Shown here piece by piece: positions 49,029 through 55,146 of a stretch of 64,000 nt of DNA. Source of the DNA: Escherichia phage vB_EcoM_LNA4; sequence record MZ311864.1; one strand, written 5' to 3'. Each line of letters starts with the position of its first letter. Positions within the stretch are counted from its first letter, which is position 1. A program made the position numbers and the translations under genes. The notes beneath the pieces were generated by a model. The model had not been told where the DNA came from. It did not search any database and saw nothing but the letters and a program-made list of their open reading frames with translations.

Positions 49029-49105
49029 GGTTCTGTAGCTTAGCTGGTTAGAGCGCTTCCCTCATAAGGAAGAGGTCGCAGGTTCAATCCCTGCCAGAAC
49101 TACCA
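49029..49105 (+). tRNA. tRNA-Met (CAT)
   Basis: 7-bp acceptor stem, anticodon loop CTCATAA, T-arm GCAGGTTCAATCCCTGC, encoded CCA. Confidence 0.8.
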
Positions 49106-49119
49106 AACGAGGAGAGACC

Positions 49120-49287
49120 ATGAATAAGATTTATGATTTTTTCGGAATTGGTAAACCCAAGAGCATGTCTTCAAACTGGGACTCCAGAATGGACTCATCT
49201 GTAGGGAATAGTAATTCTGTGTACGACCGTTATGATGTTTCACTCGGTCTTCATAAAGAAACGAAAAAAGATTCAAAAAACGATTGA
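49120..49287 (+). CDS. hypothetical protein (55 aa)
   Basis: GGAGAG RBS, Ser-rich. Confidence 0.3.
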   Translation: MNKIYDFFGIGKPKSMSSNWDSRMDSSVGNSNSVYDRYDVSLGLHKETKKDSKND

Positions 49288-49312
49288 CAAAGGAAGTACG
49301 AGATATTAGTAT
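49284..49312 (+). promoter_or_regulatory. sigma70-like promoter
   Basis: TTGACA, 17-bp spacer, TAGTAT. Confidence 0.4.
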
Positions 49313-49356
49313 TACCAACGTCAACAAGACATTAGCAAATAGAGGAGAAATACAAC

Positions 49357-49686
49357 ATGGCTAAGAAAAACGCAACTAAGAAAGTTTCTGCAATCGACGC
49401 AATCAAACAGCCTTTCCAGTTTGAGTCGAAGTCAACGCAGACTCACTCTGCACCACACGATGTTCGTCTGGGCGGTGTAACCAAGACCGTTTCCGTTCGT
49501 AAAAAGCGTCGTGATGAAGACGGCAACGTTGTATTCATCTGGGAATCCGTTTCCCGCGTTGAAGGTGGTCAGGTAATTTCTGCCTCACACCGTGTTCGCA
49601 CTGGCAAGACCAAGCGTGAACGCGCTGGTAAAGCCAAAGACGCTAAGGTTGTTGAAGCCGTAGCGCCGAAAGGTAAGAAGAAGTAA
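49357..49686 (+). CDS. basic protein (possible nucleic-acid-binding)
   Basis: 109 aa, Lys/Arg-rich, strong RBS GAGGAGA. Confidence 0.5.
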   Translation: MAKKNATKKVSAIDAIKQPFQFESKSTQTHSAPHDVRLGGVTKTVSVRKKRRDEDGNVVFIWESVSRVEGGQVISASHRVRTGKTKRERAGKAKDAKVVEAVAPKGKKK

Positions 49687-49894
49687 TAAAGCTTTACTGA
49701 ACTGATGGTTTGTGTTGAAATGGCGCTGTCGAAAATTGTCGGCAGGGTCATAGTAAACAGTCGCCCCAGTTCGGTAATTAATTCCTCCGGCATGGGGATA
49801 GACGAAGCTGGCTGCGGCGATGCGTCTTAAAATAAAGGGCTGCGGCAACCGTGACGATTCCGTGCAACGTCTTGAAAAACACGGACCTGATTTC

Positions 49895-49970
49895 GGGGTA
49901 TTAACTCAGCGGTTAGAGTAGCGGCCACTTAAGCCGAAGGTCGAAGGTTCGAATCCTTCATGCCCCACCA
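49895..49970 (+). tRNA. tRNA with CTT anticodon (Lys-like); non-canonical loop
   Basis: Good acceptor and T-arm; anticodon loop CACTTAA has A where U33 is expected. Confidence 0.5.
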
Positions 49971-50084
49971 TTTTTTGGAATGAGAGAGATACGGGTTCGA
50001 CTCCCGTTCTTGCTGGCCCGGCTCGCGTAATGGCGCAGGGCGATAGCTTAAATGGACGAAAGTGCTCTTGTTTCAAAAAACTTC

Positions 50085-50113
50085 TTGACAATGAAATTTT
50101 TAAAGTGTAGTAT
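50085..50113 (+). promoter_or_regulatory. sigma70-like promoter
   Basis: TTGACA, 17-bp spacer, TAGTAT, about 30 bp upstream of gene at 50146. Confidence 0.45.
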
Positions 50114-50145
50114 CACAACTCAATTTTACGCAAAGGAGAACTTAA

Positions 50146-50756
50146 TGTCTGATTCTAAAACTGTAATTTCTGTAACTGAACGCGCTACCAAAGCTGTTGC
50201 AACTGCTGCAACTGGCCTGAGTAAGGTTGTTGCTGAACTGCAATCTCTGGCTGAAGGCTCTGAACGTATCAGTCAAGAAATTCAGTTCAAACAGCAAGAG
50301 CTTGGCAATATCGAAGTCCAGTTCAATGAAAAACTGGCTGAAGAAAAATCTAAGCTGAAGATCAAAGTTCTTGAAAATGAAGACGGTGTACTGAACACCC
50401 TTCTGAAGGCTCGTGGCCTTGTAGCTATCGAACCGGGTGTTGTAGATGGTCTGCGTCACGAACTGGCTGTCGCTCAGTCTGGCAATGAAGATGCGATCAA
50501 TACAGCAGTTGATGCTGCAAAACGTTCTGCTGCTATCGAACTGAACGCTGTTAAGTCCAATCTGGAATCAGCACACAAAGTTGCGATTGCTGAACTGAAC
50601 GCCAATACCAAGGCAGACAAAGATCGTATCGCAATGCTGACCGAACAGCTTGAAGCTGCCCGTGCAGACCTGAAAGCAGAACGCGAAACCCGTCTGGAAA
50701 TCGCTAAAGCTGATGCGAACCGCCAGGGTGTTGTAGTTAACACTGGTAAAAACTAA
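50146..50756 (+). CDS. coiled-coil protein
   Basis: 203 aa, Ala/Glu/Lys-rich heptad-like sequence, strong RBS AAAGGAGAA. Confidence 0.55.
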
Positions 50757-50833
50757 TACCGCCGTGCCGACACGGATGTCGGCAAACATTTGAAGTACAT
50801 TTAAAATTTAAAGTTCATTGAGAGGAGAATTAT

Positions 50834-51481
50834 ATGTCTACTAAGATTTCTGTAACCCGCGCTCTGGCAACTCTGACCAAGATCGAGGGCAAGATCGAAA
50901 AGCGTATCGACCAGTTGAACACTGTTCAGATCGCAAAAGGGACGGAAGATCACCGTTCGATCCCAGGTTCTCTGGTTAGCATTGCTGACTTCGAGACTTC
51001 TGCTAAGGCAGACTTCCAAGGCCTGAAAGACCTGCTGGCAGTACGTGATGAACTGAAGGCGAAAGTTGTTCAGTCCAACGCAGTAACTCTGGTCACCGTT
51101 GGTGGTAAAGAGATGACAGTTGCTCAGGCAATTGAAGGCAAGCGCACAGTTGCTTACAAAGAACTGCTCCTGTCCAAGCTGAAAGCGCAGTACAACTTCG
51201 CTCAGAAGCGCCTTGATAAAGAAGTCGCTGACTTCGAAACCAAGCTGGAACAGGCCCGTGCTCCGTACATCAGTCGTGACAAAGCGCCTGATCCAGAGCA
51301 GATTAAGACGGTAGAAGGTCCGACCCGTCTGATGAGCACACCGTCTATCGTTGACCCGCTGGGTCTGGCAGACGTAATCCGAAATCTGGAGACAGAGATC
51401 GAAGACTTCAAATCCAACGTTGACTTTGTGTTGTCCGAGTCTAACGCACGGACTGAAGTGGAGATTGAGGGATCAATCTAA
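50834..51481 (+). CDS. coiled-coil protein
   Basis: 215-aa ORF with RBS; similar composition to upstream gene. Confidence 0.55.
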   Translation: MSTKISVTRALATLTKIEGKIEKRIDQLNTVQIAKGTEDHRSIPGSLVSIADFETSAKADFQGLKDLLAVRDELKAKVVQSNAVTLVTVGGKEMTVAQAIEGKRTVAYKELLLSKLKAQYNFAQKRLDKEVADFETKLEQARAPYISRDKAPDPEQIKTVEGPTRLMSTPSIVDPLGLADVIRNLETEIEDFKSNVDFVLSESNARTEVEIEGSI

Positions 51482-51868
51482 AATAACTTGAGGAATTATG
51501 AAAAACATCTTGTAATTCCTCTCGTTAACTGATAAAGTTTCAAAATGCTGTTTTTTGGTTAGCGAAGTTGGAAACATCTTGCCTCTACCGAGGCCGGAGG
51601 TTAAACTGCCTCGAACTTAATCATAAGGATGATACTTAACGTATGTTTCCGCAGACCACAACTCTGCCGAAAATATCGAATCGCGAATTCGAAAGACTTC
51701 AAAGTTCAACATTCAAAGATTAAAGTTCAAAGCTTAATGTTTAAACTTGAAACTTCTAAACCACAAAGCTAAAATTTCGTTGATTATTAAAATCCTGGGT
51801 CAAAGGTCCTTAGCTCACAAGATATGGCTAACCACACCTCCGGGCAGTTAATCGGAAACAGCATTCTT

Positions 51869-51943
51869 GCTCCTAAAGCATAAGTGGCGATGCAGCGGCC
51901 TTGTAAGCCGAGGAAGTGGGTTCGATTCCTACTGGGAGCACCA
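51869..51943 (+). tRNA. tRNA-Thr (TGT)
   Basis: Acceptor GCTCCTA/TGGGAGC, loop CTTGTAA, T-arm GTGGGTTCGATTCCTAC, CCA. Confidence 0.75.
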
Positions 51944-51949
51944 AACAAT

Positions 51950-54260: not shown

Positions 54261-54284
54261 AATTGAAATAAGTTAAAATAATCC

Positions 54285-54313
54285 TTGCAAAAGATTGTTT
54301 TCACTGATAAAGT
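54285..54313 (+). promoter_or_regulatory. sigma70-like promoter
   Basis: TTGCAA, 17-bp spacer, TAAAGT upstream of tRNA at 54322. Confidence 0.3.
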
Positions 54314-54321
54314 AATTACAT

Positions 54322-54410
54322 GGTTCTTTGACCGAGAGGCCGATGGTAGCAGGCTGTTAACCTGCCTGGAGTAATCCACGACGAAGGTTCGAATCCTTCA
54401 GGAACCGCCA
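54322..54410 (+). tRNA. tRNA with GTT anticodon (Asn) and long variable arm
   Basis: Canonical loop CTGTTAA on GCAGG/CCTGC stem, 17-nt variable arm with TGGA/TCCA stem, T-arm GAAGGTTCGAATCCTTC, G73, CCA. Confidence 0.6.
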
Positions 54411-54443
54411 AATTAGGTGATACGCTACCTTAAGTGCGAACTT

Positions 54444-54520
54444 GAAAATTAATGGGGCCGTGGCTGACAAGGTAATGGTGCCGCACTGTCTATGCGGAAA
54501 ATGAGGGTTCGATCCCCTTC
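54444..54520 (+). tRNA. tRNA-Asp (GTC)
   Basis: Loop CTGTCTA on CCGCA/TGCGG stem, T-arm GAGGGTTCGATCCCCTT, CCA. Confidence 0.6.
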
Positions 54521-54713
54521 GGTCTCGCCAATTTGATATGTTGATGTAAATTGCCGGAAGGCACTCAAAATGAGTTCGACATATCAAACCAAATACGCTC
54601 TTGCAGGAAAGGTTAGCCTCCCTGCAATGTCACACTAGGTGATCAGAGCGGATCAAATTAGCTAGCCAGCGATACCAGTTGCAGTGTCTGGGACAATTAA
54701 AATTCTGCACCTT

Positions 54714-54791
54714 CGGAGCGTAGCGCAGTCTGGTCAGCGTGGGAGCCTTGGATGCTCTGGGTCGCAGGTTCGAATCCTGCCGCTCCGACCA
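54714..54791 (+). tRNA. tRNA-Pro (TGG)
   Basis: Loop CTTGGAT, T-arm GCAGGTTCGAATCCTGC, CCA. Confidence 0.8.
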
Positions 54792-54796
54792 ATTTA

Positions 54797-54872
54797 GCAG
54801 GTATAGTTCAACTGGACAGAGCATCAGTTTACGAAGCTGAGAATCGGGGTTCGAATCCCTGTATCTGCACCA
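54797..54872 (+). tRNA. tRNA-Arg (ACG)
   Basis: Loop TTACGAA, T-arm CGGGGTTCGAATCCCTG, CCA. Confidence 0.8.
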
Positions 54873-54907
54873 AATTAAGGCTTGGATTTCTTCGGACCCA
54901 AGCGCAC

Positions 54908-54984
54908 GGGCGATTGATGGAATTGGTATACGTGTCGGATTTAGATTCCGAATTTTGGGGGTTCGAGTCCCCTGTCGCCCACCA
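54908..54984 (+). tRNA. tRNA-Leu (TAG), short variable arm
   Basis: Loop TTTAGAT on TCGGA/TCCGA stem, A73, T-arm GGGGGTTCGAGTCCCCT, CCA; no long variable arm. Confidence 0.6.
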
Positions 54985-54991
54985 ATCCTTC

Positions 54992-55067
54992 GGGACTGTA
55001 GCTCAGTTGGTAGAGCACCTGATTGAAGATCAGGGTGTCGGTGGTTCGAATCCACTCGGTCCCGCCA
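54992..55067 (+). tRNA. tRNA-Phe (GAA)
   Basis: Loop TTGAAGA on CCTGA/TCAGG stem, T-arm GGTGGTTCGAATCCACT, CCA. Confidence 0.8.
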
Positions 55068-55073
55068 AATAAT

Positions 55074-55146
55074 TGCGAGCTAGAATTCTGGTGAATTCAC
55101 GAGTCTCATAAGCTTGTTCAGAGGGGTTCGATTCCGCTGCTCGCAA
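55074..55146 (+). tRNA. tRNA with CAT anticodon (Met or Ile2), no encoded CCA
   Basis: Perfect acceptor TGCGAGC/GCTCGCA, loop CTCATAA, T-loop TTCGATT; 3' end lacks CCA. Confidence 0.6.

Follow-up and report, generated by a model that had tools for sequence, protein, structure and literature searches.

What would a phage gain from encoding transfer RNAs (tRNAs) for 16 to 18 amino acids? This question is raised by a stretch of 64,000 nucleotides (nt) of DNA from Escherichia phage vB_EcoM_LNA4 (sequence record MZ311864.1; the whole stretch is referred to here as the window), in which a dense tRNA array is interleaved with small protein genes and promoter sequences. Sequence comparison identifies this locus as the tRNA cluster of a virulent myophage of the genus Seunavirus (Vequintavirinae), orthologous to the arrays of Cronobacter phage GAP31, Enterobacter phage EC152, Escherichia phage 4MG and Salmonella phage PVP-SE1. 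Taken as a whole, it is best explained, with a probability of roughly 0.6, as a promoter-driven tRNA pool that would both top up the tRNAs for certain codons and provide resilience to the loss of host tRNAs. The finding is correct but ordinary, in that the array is a known and annotated one whose proposed role is already in the literature, and it represents no new kind of system.

The tRNA genes of the array and their conservation

With ARAGORN at default settings, 22 tRNA genes were called in the window, all on the + strand between positions 49029 and 55147. The Rfam tRNA model at its gathering score confirmed 20 of these 22 genes and found one more at 54066-54149 (50.5 bits) that ARAGORN had missed at default settings, so that the estimate of about 23 tRNA genes made in a first-pass annotation of this DNA agrees with the 23 firm genes obtained here. 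The same annotation had counted at least 17 amino-acid identities. The 23 firm genes represent 16, and the count rises to 18 only when the Gly(UCC) and His(GUG)-like genes that appear at lower thresholds are added, for a total of 25 genes (Table 1). The 3' CCA is encoded in 22 of the 25 genes and is missing from, for instance, tRNA-Ser(GCU) and the last tRNA-Met. Adjacent tRNA genes are separated by 0-8 nt, and the bases that follow the CCA are A/T-rich. One ARAGORN gene, Arg(GCG) at 51950-52023, is doubtful: it is without an Rfam match and is unannotated in EC152, 4MG and Enterobacter phage FENT2.

The extra gene found by Rfam was labelled tRNA-Glu(CUC) by ARAGORN at a low threshold, a label that we rejected as a register error. 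Because a CUCGA/UCGAG stem encloses the loop CUUUUAA, 54066-54152 is a tRNA-Lys(UUU) gene, and it is annotated as such in GAP31, EC152, 4MG and FENT2. When the gaps of the array were searched for further tRNAs with ARAGORN at a low threshold, only a weak Arg-like match within 51482-51868 and the His-like element were found. The larger gaps at 49985-50010, 52025-52131 and 54159-54260 hold tRNA-like remnants, among them a T-arm-like sequence, GGGTTCGACTCCC, a weak Rfam match to tRNA-Sec with the arm GGTGG-TTAGATT-CCACC, and an element of about 100 nt with the 3' end ...TCCCGCCA.

The array region is 96.5% identical to that of EC152 and 96.2% identical to that of GAP31 over 91% of its length, and weaker matches were found in 128 phage records, mostly of Vequintavirinae. 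These matches bear out the phage source of the DNA and place it in the genus Seunavirus. The same tRNA order was seen in 12 related loci when ARAGORN calls were compared side by side. In the annotated relatives, a NAMPT gene and small open reading frames (ORFs) lie upstream, followed by tRNA-Met, two ORFs, tRNA-Lys(CUU), ORFs of 203 and 215 amino acids (aa), and then the run from tRNA-Thr to tRNA-Phe and tRNA-Met; downstream come the genes for a protein of about 474 aa, for the spanins and for the terminase. From this orthology and synteny with the annotated arrays of GAP31, EC152, 4MG and PVP-SE1 it follows that the array was already known.

Predicted transcription and processing

The sequence TTGACA-N17-TAnnAT occurs seven times in the window, compared with 0.14 occurrences expected, and none of 100 shuffled sequences reached seven. 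Five of the seven sites lie on the + strand between 48316 and 52628, and these five perfect promoters are found at orthologous sites in GAP31, EC152, 4MG and FENT2; four are present in the stretch of PVP-SE1 that was examined, and the PVP-SE1 record itself annotates a promoter orthologous to the sites at 52566-52628. The observation of at least four sigma70-like TTGACA promoter sequences with a 17-base-pair (bp) spacing in the array is borne out, with five perfect sites on the + strand, far above chance and conserved in relatives.

Host RNA polymerase with sigma70 would start at these serial near-consensus promoters and produce transcripts in which small protein genes are combined with stretches of tRNAs. 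As deduced from the positions of the promoters and of the terminator, the last unit would be the longest, running from 52600 through the 121-aa ORF, about 17 tRNA genes and an endonuclease gene to the strong terminator at 55769. In E. coli, tRNA precursors are processed by RNase P and RNase E. Because the spacers are short and A/T-rich and the CCA is encoded in most of the genes, processing of this type by the host RNase P and RNase E should free the mature array tRNAs. The few array tRNAs without an encoded CCA, such as tRNA-Ser(GCU) and the last tRNA-Met, would need a CCA-adding activity.

Codon usage and possible codon supply

Codon usage was compared between 80 ORFs of the window and 34 genes of E. 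coli K-12. Several codons read by the array tRNAs are enriched in the phage, namely AGG (5.6-fold), AGA (4.8-fold), ACA (2.95-fold), AUA (2.0-fold), and AAG, GGA and CCA (1.9-fold each), and the pool would top up the tRNAs for these over-used codons. Other cognate codons are not enriched or are depleted, with ratios of 0.67 for AAA, 0.47 for CGC, 0.88 for CUA, 0.85 for UUA, 0.80 for GAA and 0.68 for AGC. The expectation that the anticodons of the array would match codons enriched in phage genes was thus borne out for the seven codons listed first and did not reach significance for the array overall (Mann-Whitney p = 0.34). Because the enrichment is partial and the overall test is not significant, codon supply accounts for only a subset of the tRNAs.

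Proposed replacement of host tRNAs and counter-defence

It has been established experimentally for T5-like phages that phage tRNAs can outlast tRNA-cleaving defences (PMC12409363, PMC11555353, PMC10264068). For instance, the tRNAs of T5 for Lys(UUU), Thr(UGU) and Asn(GUU) neutralise the PARIS nuclease AriB, and resistance to AriB involves positions 39 and 41 and the D-loop U16 (PMC12409363). A T5-like tRNA-Tyr under a strong phage promoter defeats the retron Eco7, and a phage tRNA-Lys defeats PrrC (PMC11555353). Furthermore, changes in the anticodon loop occur in phage tRNAs, and rnl1 is also present in coliphages that encode a tRNA-Lys(UUU) (PMC10264068). In the window, the isoacceptors targeted by AriB, Lys(UUU), Thr(UGU) and Asn(GUU), are all encoded, as is tRNA-Tyr. 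Compared with E. coli at the AriB determinants, tRNA-Thr(UGU) has G39, C41 and G16, tRNA-Asn(GUU) has C39, and tRNA-Lys(UUU) keeps U39 and has G41, C16, no position 17 and an insertion of 11 nt in the D loop.

The array would give the phage a nearly complete tRNA pool of its own, covering 16-18 amino acids, which could sustain translation if the tRNAs of the host run short or are cleaved by anticodon nucleases. Such a pool would be backed by enzymes of tRNA repair or rebuilding encoded in the window, namely an Rnl1-type RNA ligase, a phosphoesterase, an HD-domain CCA-adding enzyme and a second, divergent CCA-adding-like protein whose gene adjoins the array. The CCA-adding enzyme reported in the first-pass annotation is indeed present, about 35 kb from the array, with a PolyA_pol head, an RNA-binding domain and an HD domain like that of E. 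coli Cca, and its GAP31 counterpart, GAP31_120, is annotated as a tRNA nucleotidyltransferase. In our analysis, replacement of host tRNAs and counter-defence appear to fit the near-complete set and the repair enzymes better than codon supply does. The interpretation given in the first-pass annotation, that the phage supplements or replaces host tRNAs, is partly supported at the level of sequence, as its components are present and the codon test is mixed.

Unusual tRNA architectures

Four tRNAs of the array, the tRNA-Asn, the tRNA-Lys(UUU) and both tRNA-Leu, depart from the usual shape, and their stems stay paired across relatives through compensatory changes. The tRNA-Asn(GUU) carries a long variable arm, and its scaffold is nearest to that of E. 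coli tRNA-Tyr (61 of 89 positions identical); between the window and GAP31, a U-A pair of the arm stem is replaced by G-C, which is a compensatory swap. Within Vequintavirinae the Asn slot is occupied by two unrelated scaffolds, each with compensatory changes in the variable arm, one being Tyr-like and the other resembling an ordinary tRNA-Asn with an inserted 10-nt hairpin. A pattern scan of IMG/VR for long-armed tRNA-Asn genes gave at least 120 matches (loci L095-L214); among the 120 matches listed, at least 95 were confirmed by ARAGORN as tRNA-Asn, with lengths of 82-92 nt and at least 93 distinct sequences, and these genes lie mostly inside tRNA arrays. When the listed IMG/VR sequences were combined with those from Vequintavirinae (n = 101), a variable-arm hairpin of at least 3 bp was present in 93, compared with 63.9 +/- 4.5 in shuffled sequences, and the arm was capped by a GNRA tetraloop in 41, compared with 0.5 in shuffles. 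The base G73, which is the Asn identity base, was found in 95 of the 101, whereas 45 of 46 phage tRNA-Tyr sequences have A73. The geometry of the arm is of the Tyr type, with 1 nt on the 5' side, 3-4 nt on the 3' side and 3-4 bp, as opposed to 1 and 1 nt and 4-7 bp in the Ser type. In loci gathered without regard to Asn, long forms make up 6 of 15 distinct tRNA-Asn sequences, while the other class I isoacceptors are mostly never long, except for Trp (4 of 8) and Cys (3 of 13). Among the 120 pattern matches listed from bacterial and archaeal genomes, 14 were real cases, and 9 of these 14 lie in dense tRNA arrays; outside such arrays, the long arm is rare in bacterial genomes. The tRNA-Asn of the T5-like phage SP15 also has the long arm (L215:5559-5638), with the host-like AriB site, U36AAUCC, kept.

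The 11-nt insertion in the D loop of tRNA-Lys(UUU) follows G18G19 and is restricted to the clade of GAP31, 4MG, FENT2 and PVP-SE1; other relatives have a normal gene of 76-77 nt. AriB has been modelled to read the D loop (PMC12409363). Both tRNA-Leu genes lack the long variable arm. In tRNA-Leu(UAG), deletion of the arm is visible by comparison with relatives that have it, and covariation persists in the anticodon stem. In the sampled loci, about 31-45% of phage tRNA-Leu genes are short, and the Leu tRNAs of T5-like phages are short as well. E. coli leucyl-tRNA synthetase needs no long arm, and the identity of tRNA-Asn resides in the anticodon and G73 (PMC9976931). Since leucylation is independent of the arm and the Asn identity elements are kept, the armless tRNA-Leu and the long-armed tRNA-Asn should still be charged correctly. 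We hypothesize that the odd overall shapes of the long-armed tRNA-Asn, the D-loop-expanded tRNA-Lys(UUU) and the armless tRNA-Leu could make them poor substrates for host nucleases. Bacterial Schlafens were considered as a cause of the armless tRNA-Leu and were dropped, as the Schlafen paper gives no class II specificity. A literature search, whose reach did not extend to the older T5 tRNA sequencing papers, gave no description of a long-armed phage tRNA-Asn or of related shape patterns.

Mosaic differences between relatives

Compared with its relatives, the array of the window has lost two genes by clean deletions of about 80 nt each, tRNA-Ala(UGC) after tRNA-Arg(ACG) and tRNA-Val(UAC) after tRNA-Leu(UAG), and its Gly, Asp, Phe and terminal Met genes are other alleles than those in the nearest relatives. 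An Endonuclease VII/HNH-type gene rides on an insertion of about 490 nt after the last tRNA. It is absent from this place in GAP31, EC152 and UViG_2938709436, and the arrangement is shared at 91% identity by Klebsiella phages Seu621 and KpS8; beside the insertion, the identity of the adjoining tRNA-Phe falls to 81%. Between 54873 and 55628, the pattern of deletions, insertion and altered flanks looks like exchange driven by a homing endonuclease.

Two tRNAs of the array have exceptional bases in the anticodon loop. The tRNA-Asp(GUC) has U37, a pyrimidine at an almost universally purine site, and this allele is common to FENT2 and PVP-SE1; the tRNA-Asp of GAP31, EC152 and 4MG has the canonical loop CUGUCAC. 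The tRNA-Lys(CUU) has A33 (loop CACUUAA), compared with U33 in all close relatives and C33 in one more distant relative. The A33 could reflect a deleterious mutation, an error of sequencing, or an alteration at the cut site of a PrrC-type nuclease.

Alternative explanations

Several observations weigh against the explanation of the array as a pool for codon top-up and resilience. E. coli K-12 served as a proxy for codon usage and may not be the actual host. The cognate codons taken together are no more enriched than others, and CUU, CCU and GCU are strongly enriched and yet have no dedicated phage tRNA. The array promoters are consensus matches only. The differences at positions 39-41 are consistent with evasion of AriB and are not evidence of it, because ordinary divergence of the anticodon stem predicts them. 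Furthermore, individual tRNAs seem to be dispensable, because Ala and Val have been lost and the change from U33 to A in tRNA-Lys(CUU) is probably damaging. Another account would be that the array only supplies tRNAs for the codons over-used by a phage of 46% G+C in an enterobacterial host of higher G+C, with no role against defences. The classical rare-codon tRNAs are indeed present and their codons are those enriched up to 5.6-fold, and the same argument was made for the six tRNAs of phage rV5 (PMC3606486). However, the codons read by many of the tRNAs show no enrichment or even depletion, three strongly enriched codons lack a dedicated tRNA, and codon supply leaves the RNA ligase, the phosphoesterase, the two CCA-type enzymes and the remodelled tRNA shapes unexplained. 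We therefore regard pure codon compensation as rather unlikely.

It could also be argued that the array is evolutionary baggage, that is, a mobile, recombining cassette that is reshuffled by homing endonucleases and most members of which are neutral or decaying. The Ala and Val deletions, the allele swaps of Gly, Asp, Phe and Met, the endonuclease insertion, the altered base 33 of tRNA-Lys(CUU) and the tRNA-like remnants would all be expected of such a cassette. However, phages with no more than 72-82% identity have kept the order of the genes, the five promoters and the encoded CCA ends, stems keep their pairing through compensatory changes, and the T5 experiments show such tRNAs to be functional (PMC12409363, PMC11555353), which makes this explanation improbable. 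Still less probable, to the point that we give it very little credence, is recoding or mistranslation, in which the long-armed tRNA-Asn(GUU) would be charged by seryl- or tyrosyl-tRNA synthetase and insert Ser or Tyr at Asn codons. Its long variable arm and its Tyr-like scaffold would be in keeping with such a role, as would G73, G2-C71 and C11-G24, all of them serine identity elements. However, both Asn identity elements, the GUU anticodon and G73, are present (rules: PMC9976931), the arm is short (3-4 bp) and of Tyr-type rather than Ser-type geometry, and mischarging would corrupt every Asn codon read, because the window has no other tRNA-Asn. A tRNA pool that would combine codon top-up with resilience to the loss of host tRNAs thus remains the explanation we prefer.

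Proteins encoded within and beside the array

The five ORFs and the sixth one placed within the array by the first-pass annotation all exist; the third starts at 50145 and not at 50146. All six are preceded by an AGGAG-type ribosome-binding site and match PHROG families with E values of 3e-25 to 2e-95, and a Pfam search found no domain in any of them. Two of these proteins had been described as coiled-coil and uncharacterised; both are helical and indeed uncharacterised, with no Pfam domain in either and no informative match in a structural search with the predicted model of the 215-aa protein, which is a helical bundle with a predicted local distance difference test (pLDDT) score of 81. The 3' end of the 51-aa ORF overlaps the 5' end of tRNA-Ser(GCU) (53879) by 10 nt. 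Because of this overlap, processing of the tRNA would cut the mRNA of the ORF at the region of its stop codon.

The family of the 215-aa protein has 302 relatives at E <= 0.001. In 80 IMG/VR loci (L011-L090) that encode it, tRNA genes lie within 6 kb in 59, always on the same strand, and in the 40 most distant loci a tRNA gene lies within 1 kb downstream in 16 and within 1 kb upstream in 2. In many phage lineages that are unrelated to one another, the gene typically lies 350-620 nt 5' of the first tRNA gene. The "tail fiber" label of its PHROG family, phrog_1491, is unsupported for this protein. An embedded ORF was also considered as a homologue of the anti-retron ORF75 of SP15 and was rejected as such: the sole SP15 homologue is that of the 215-aa protein, which matches E0157_083 and not E0157_075. 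E0157_075 (L215:7931-8500) has a Toprim-like GDNDPAG motif by eye and has no homologue in the array of the window; it is the published ORF75 only if the locus tag corresponds.

The 474-aa gene is located directly 3' of the array in all relatives and is annotated as hypothetical in each of them. Its N-terminal part aligns with the class II CCA-adding/poly(A)-polymerase fold, its head and neck have the nucleotidyltransferase fold, and the residues of motif A (GG..DxD; G38, G39, D52 and D54) are invariant in 17 homologues, as is the sequence DFTINM. At the sequence level, however, membership fails. No Pfam match was obtained even at an E value of 10, including to PF01743, no sequence match was found in the PDB, and an hhalign comparison of its profile with the Cca of the same phage aligned 24 columns with a probability of 0.6%. 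The templating motif D, EDxxR, is not invariant in the homologues, in which a local EFDSR stretch varies by eye, and no match was obtained for the beta-rich domain of about 120 aa at the C-terminus. Because sequence-level membership fails and EDxxR is not conserved, we describe the protein as class II nucleotidyltransferase-like and do not file it as a CCA-adding enzyme. That it works like a class II nucleotidyltransferase, possibly as a cryptic CCA-adding-like enzyme, is a lead from sequence and model. PF26128 is precomputed for its homologues.

Other genes of the window lie near those for RNA repair and near the array (Table 1). A SIR2-family gene at 40027-40803 on the - strand is flanked by the genes for DNA ligase and RNA ligase, a place taken in GAP31 by four small ORFs. 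Genes for a phosphoribosyl pyrophosphate synthetase (44678-45490) and a NAMPT-type protein (46077-47762) lie just 5' of the array, which suggests salvage of NAD+.

The array is a well-resolved example of a complete tRNA pool placed under consensus promoters beside enzymes of RNA repair and of the CCA type, in a group of phages that has a broad host range and is of therapeutic interest. The more interesting points are peripheral to it and are offered as leads from sequence and predicted models, namely the tRNAs of switched architecture that are widespread in phages, the protein family tied to the arrays and the putative cryptic CCA-adding-like enzyme. We tentatively suggest, with the odds somewhat against it, that such arrays evade host tRNA nucleases through the architecture of the targeted tRNAs and not by anticodon-loop point mutations alone, in that the tRNA-Asn arm would have been repeatedly gained, the Leu arm repeatedly lost and the D loop of tRNA-Lys(UUU) enlarged, and that the 215-aa and 474-aa proteins may belong to the same tRNA-protection module. 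If confirmed, this would extend the determinants of nuclease resistance beyond the anticodon loop to the variable arm and the D loop, and it would give two uncharacterised proteins that are physically tied to tRNA arrays.

Table 1. Features of the tRNA array and related genes in the window
Feature	Position	Strand	Basis
RlaP-family nucleotidyltransferase ("RNA repair pathway"), candidate RNA-repair gene	10539..11681	-	domain search
Canonical CCA-adding enzyme	14203..15456	-	PolyA_pol head PF01743 E 5.7e-21, RNA-binding PF12627 E 3.5e-6, HD PF01966 E 2.7e-6
T4 Rnl1-type RNA ligase	41025..41909	-	domain search; GAP31_172
Calcineurin-like metallophosphoesterase, possibly an RNA end-healing enzyme	42475..43071	-	domain search
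sigma70-type promoter TTGACA-N17-TAAGAT (TG-extended), 5' of small ORFs 48395-49005	48316..48344	+	motif scan; orthologous sites
Promoter TTGACA-N17-TAATAT, ~20 nt 5' of first tRNA	48980..49008	+	motif scan; orthologous sites
tRNA, anticodon CAU (Met, or Ile2 if lysidinylated), CCA encoded	49029..49105	+	ARAGORN; Rfam 71 bits
ORF, 55 aa, phrog_6110, function unknown	49120..49287	+	PHROG
Promoter TTGACA-N17-TAGTAT	49284..49312	+	motif scan; orthologous sites
ORF, 109 aa, very basic (Lys/Arg-rich), phrog_6662, function unknown	49357..49686	+	PHROG
tRNA-Lys(CUU), A33, followed by T6 run	49895..49970	+	ARAGORN, Rfam
Promoter TTGACA-N17-TAGTAT	50085..50113	+	motif scan; orthologous sites
ORF, 203 aa, coiled-coil-like, phrog_9325, Vequintavirinae-like phages only	50145..50756	+	PHROG
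ORF, 215 aa, phrog_1491, homologue of T5.085 / SP15 E0157_083	50834..51481	+	PHROG, homology
Weaker promoter-like TTGAAA-N17-TAAAAT, 94 nt 5' of tRNA-Thr	51747..51775	+	motif scan
tRNA-Thr(UGU), positions 36-41 UAAGCC (E. coli: UAAUCA)	51869..51943	+	ARAGORN, Rfam
Doubtful tRNA-Arg(GCG)-like element	51950..52023	+	ARAGORN only
tRNA-Leu(UAA), 78 nt, without long variable arm, A73	52326..52403	+	ARAGORN, Rfam
tRNA-Arg(UCU)	52407..52481	+	ARAGORN, Rfam
tRNA-Cys(GCA)	52487..52560	+	ARAGORN, Rfam
Two adjoining promoter-like sites, TTGATA-N17-TAAAAT and TTGACA-N17-TAACAT (latter at 52600)	52566..52628	+	motif scan; orthologous sites
ORF, 121 aa, basic N-terminus, acidic C-terminus, phrog_3330, function unknown	52647..53012	+	PHROG
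tRNA-Tyr(GUA), class II	53015..53102	+	ARAGORN, Rfam
tRNA-Ile(GAU)	53109..53183	+	ARAGORN, Rfam
Probable tRNA-Gly(UCC), atypical D arm, allele unlike that of GAP31	53189..53265	+	Rfam 29 bits; low-threshold ARAGORN
tRNA-Glu(UUC)	53271..53346	+	ARAGORN, Rfam
tRNA-Trp(CCA)	53354..53430	+	ARAGORN, Rfam
tRNA-Gln(UUG)	53436..53511	+	ARAGORN, Rfam
tRNA-His(GUG)-like, non-canonical T loop, anticodon arm conserved in relatives	53545..53620	+	low-threshold ARAGORN
tRNA-Ser(GGA)	53626..53718	+	ARAGORN, Rfam
ORF, 51 aa, three Cys, phrog_17355	53733..53888	+	PHROG
tRNA-Ser(GCU), no encoded CCA, zero spacer to next tRNA	53879..53971	+	ARAGORN, Rfam
tRNA-Ser(UGA)	53972..54060	+	ARAGORN, Rfam
tRNA-Lys(UUU), 87 nt, 11-nt D-loop insertion forming GAC-GTAT-GTC mini-hairpin, C16, G41	54066..54152	+	Rfam
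Weak promoter-like TTGCAA-N17-TAAAGT (TG-extended), 8/12 matches, directly 5' of tRNA-Asn	54285..54313	+	by eye
tRNA-Asn(GUU), 89 nt, long variable arm TGGA-GTAA-TCCA, G73, Tyr-like scaffold	54322..54410	+	ARAGORN, Rfam
tRNA-Asp(GUC), U37	54454..54530	+	ARAGORN, Rfam
tRNA-Pro(UGG)	54714..54791	+	ARAGORN, Rfam
tRNA-Arg(ACG)	54797..54872	+	ARAGORN, Rfam
tRNA-Leu(UAG), 77 nt, long variable arm deleted, A73	54908..54984	+	ARAGORN, Rfam
tRNA-Phe(GAA), 81% identity to that of GAP31	54992..55067	+	ARAGORN, Rfam
tRNA-Met(CAU), low score, no encoded CCA, within inserted segment	55074..55147	+	ARAGORN; Rfam 37.6 bits
Endonuclease VII/HNH-type gene, probable homing endonuclease	55164..55628	+	Pfam PF02945 E 2.6e-13; phrog_2633 E 2e-22
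Intrinsic terminator, 7 G-C pairs then T-run, closing the array transcription unit	55769..55796	+	sequence
474-aa protein, class II CCA-adding/poly(A)-polymerase fold in N-terminal part	55838..57262	+	~190 residues aligned

Comparison with known systems

The closest known systems are the arrays of other Seunavirus and Vequintavirinae phages (GAP31, PVP-SE1, 4MG, EC152 and FENT2), with which the array of the window shares its tRNA order, the six ORFs, the five promoters and the 474-aa gene; PVP-SE1, 4MG and FENT2 are carriers of the orthologous array in addition to the two nearest relatives. Phage T4 is alike in combining a tRNA cluster with an Rnl1-type ligase and end-healing functions, which in T4 are the Rnl1 and Pnkp that repair the tRNA-Lys cut by PrrC. 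The T4 tRNA region also contains the homing endonuclease SegB. Unlike the window, T4 encodes 8 tRNAs, none of which is a tRNA-Lys, whereas in the window no Pnkp homologue was identified and two CCA-type nucleotidyltransferases are present.

The tRNA-rich region of T5 and SP15 resembles the array in having many tRNAs interleaved with small ORFs and strong sigma70 promoters, and it shares with it the 215-aa family (38.7% identity to SP15 E0157_083), a homologous armless tRNA-Leu(UAG) and the long-armed tRNA-Asn. These phages belong to another family, Demerecviridae, and their tRNAs are more dispersed; the anti-retron ORF75 of SP15 has no homologue in the array of the window, and none of the other five embedded ORFs is common to both. 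Experiments have shown roles of the T5 region against PARIS, retrons and PrrC (PMC12409363, PMC11555353). Since the same tRNA-Asn and tRNA-Leu shapes and the 215-aa family occur in T5 itself, the leads that concern them are directly testable there.

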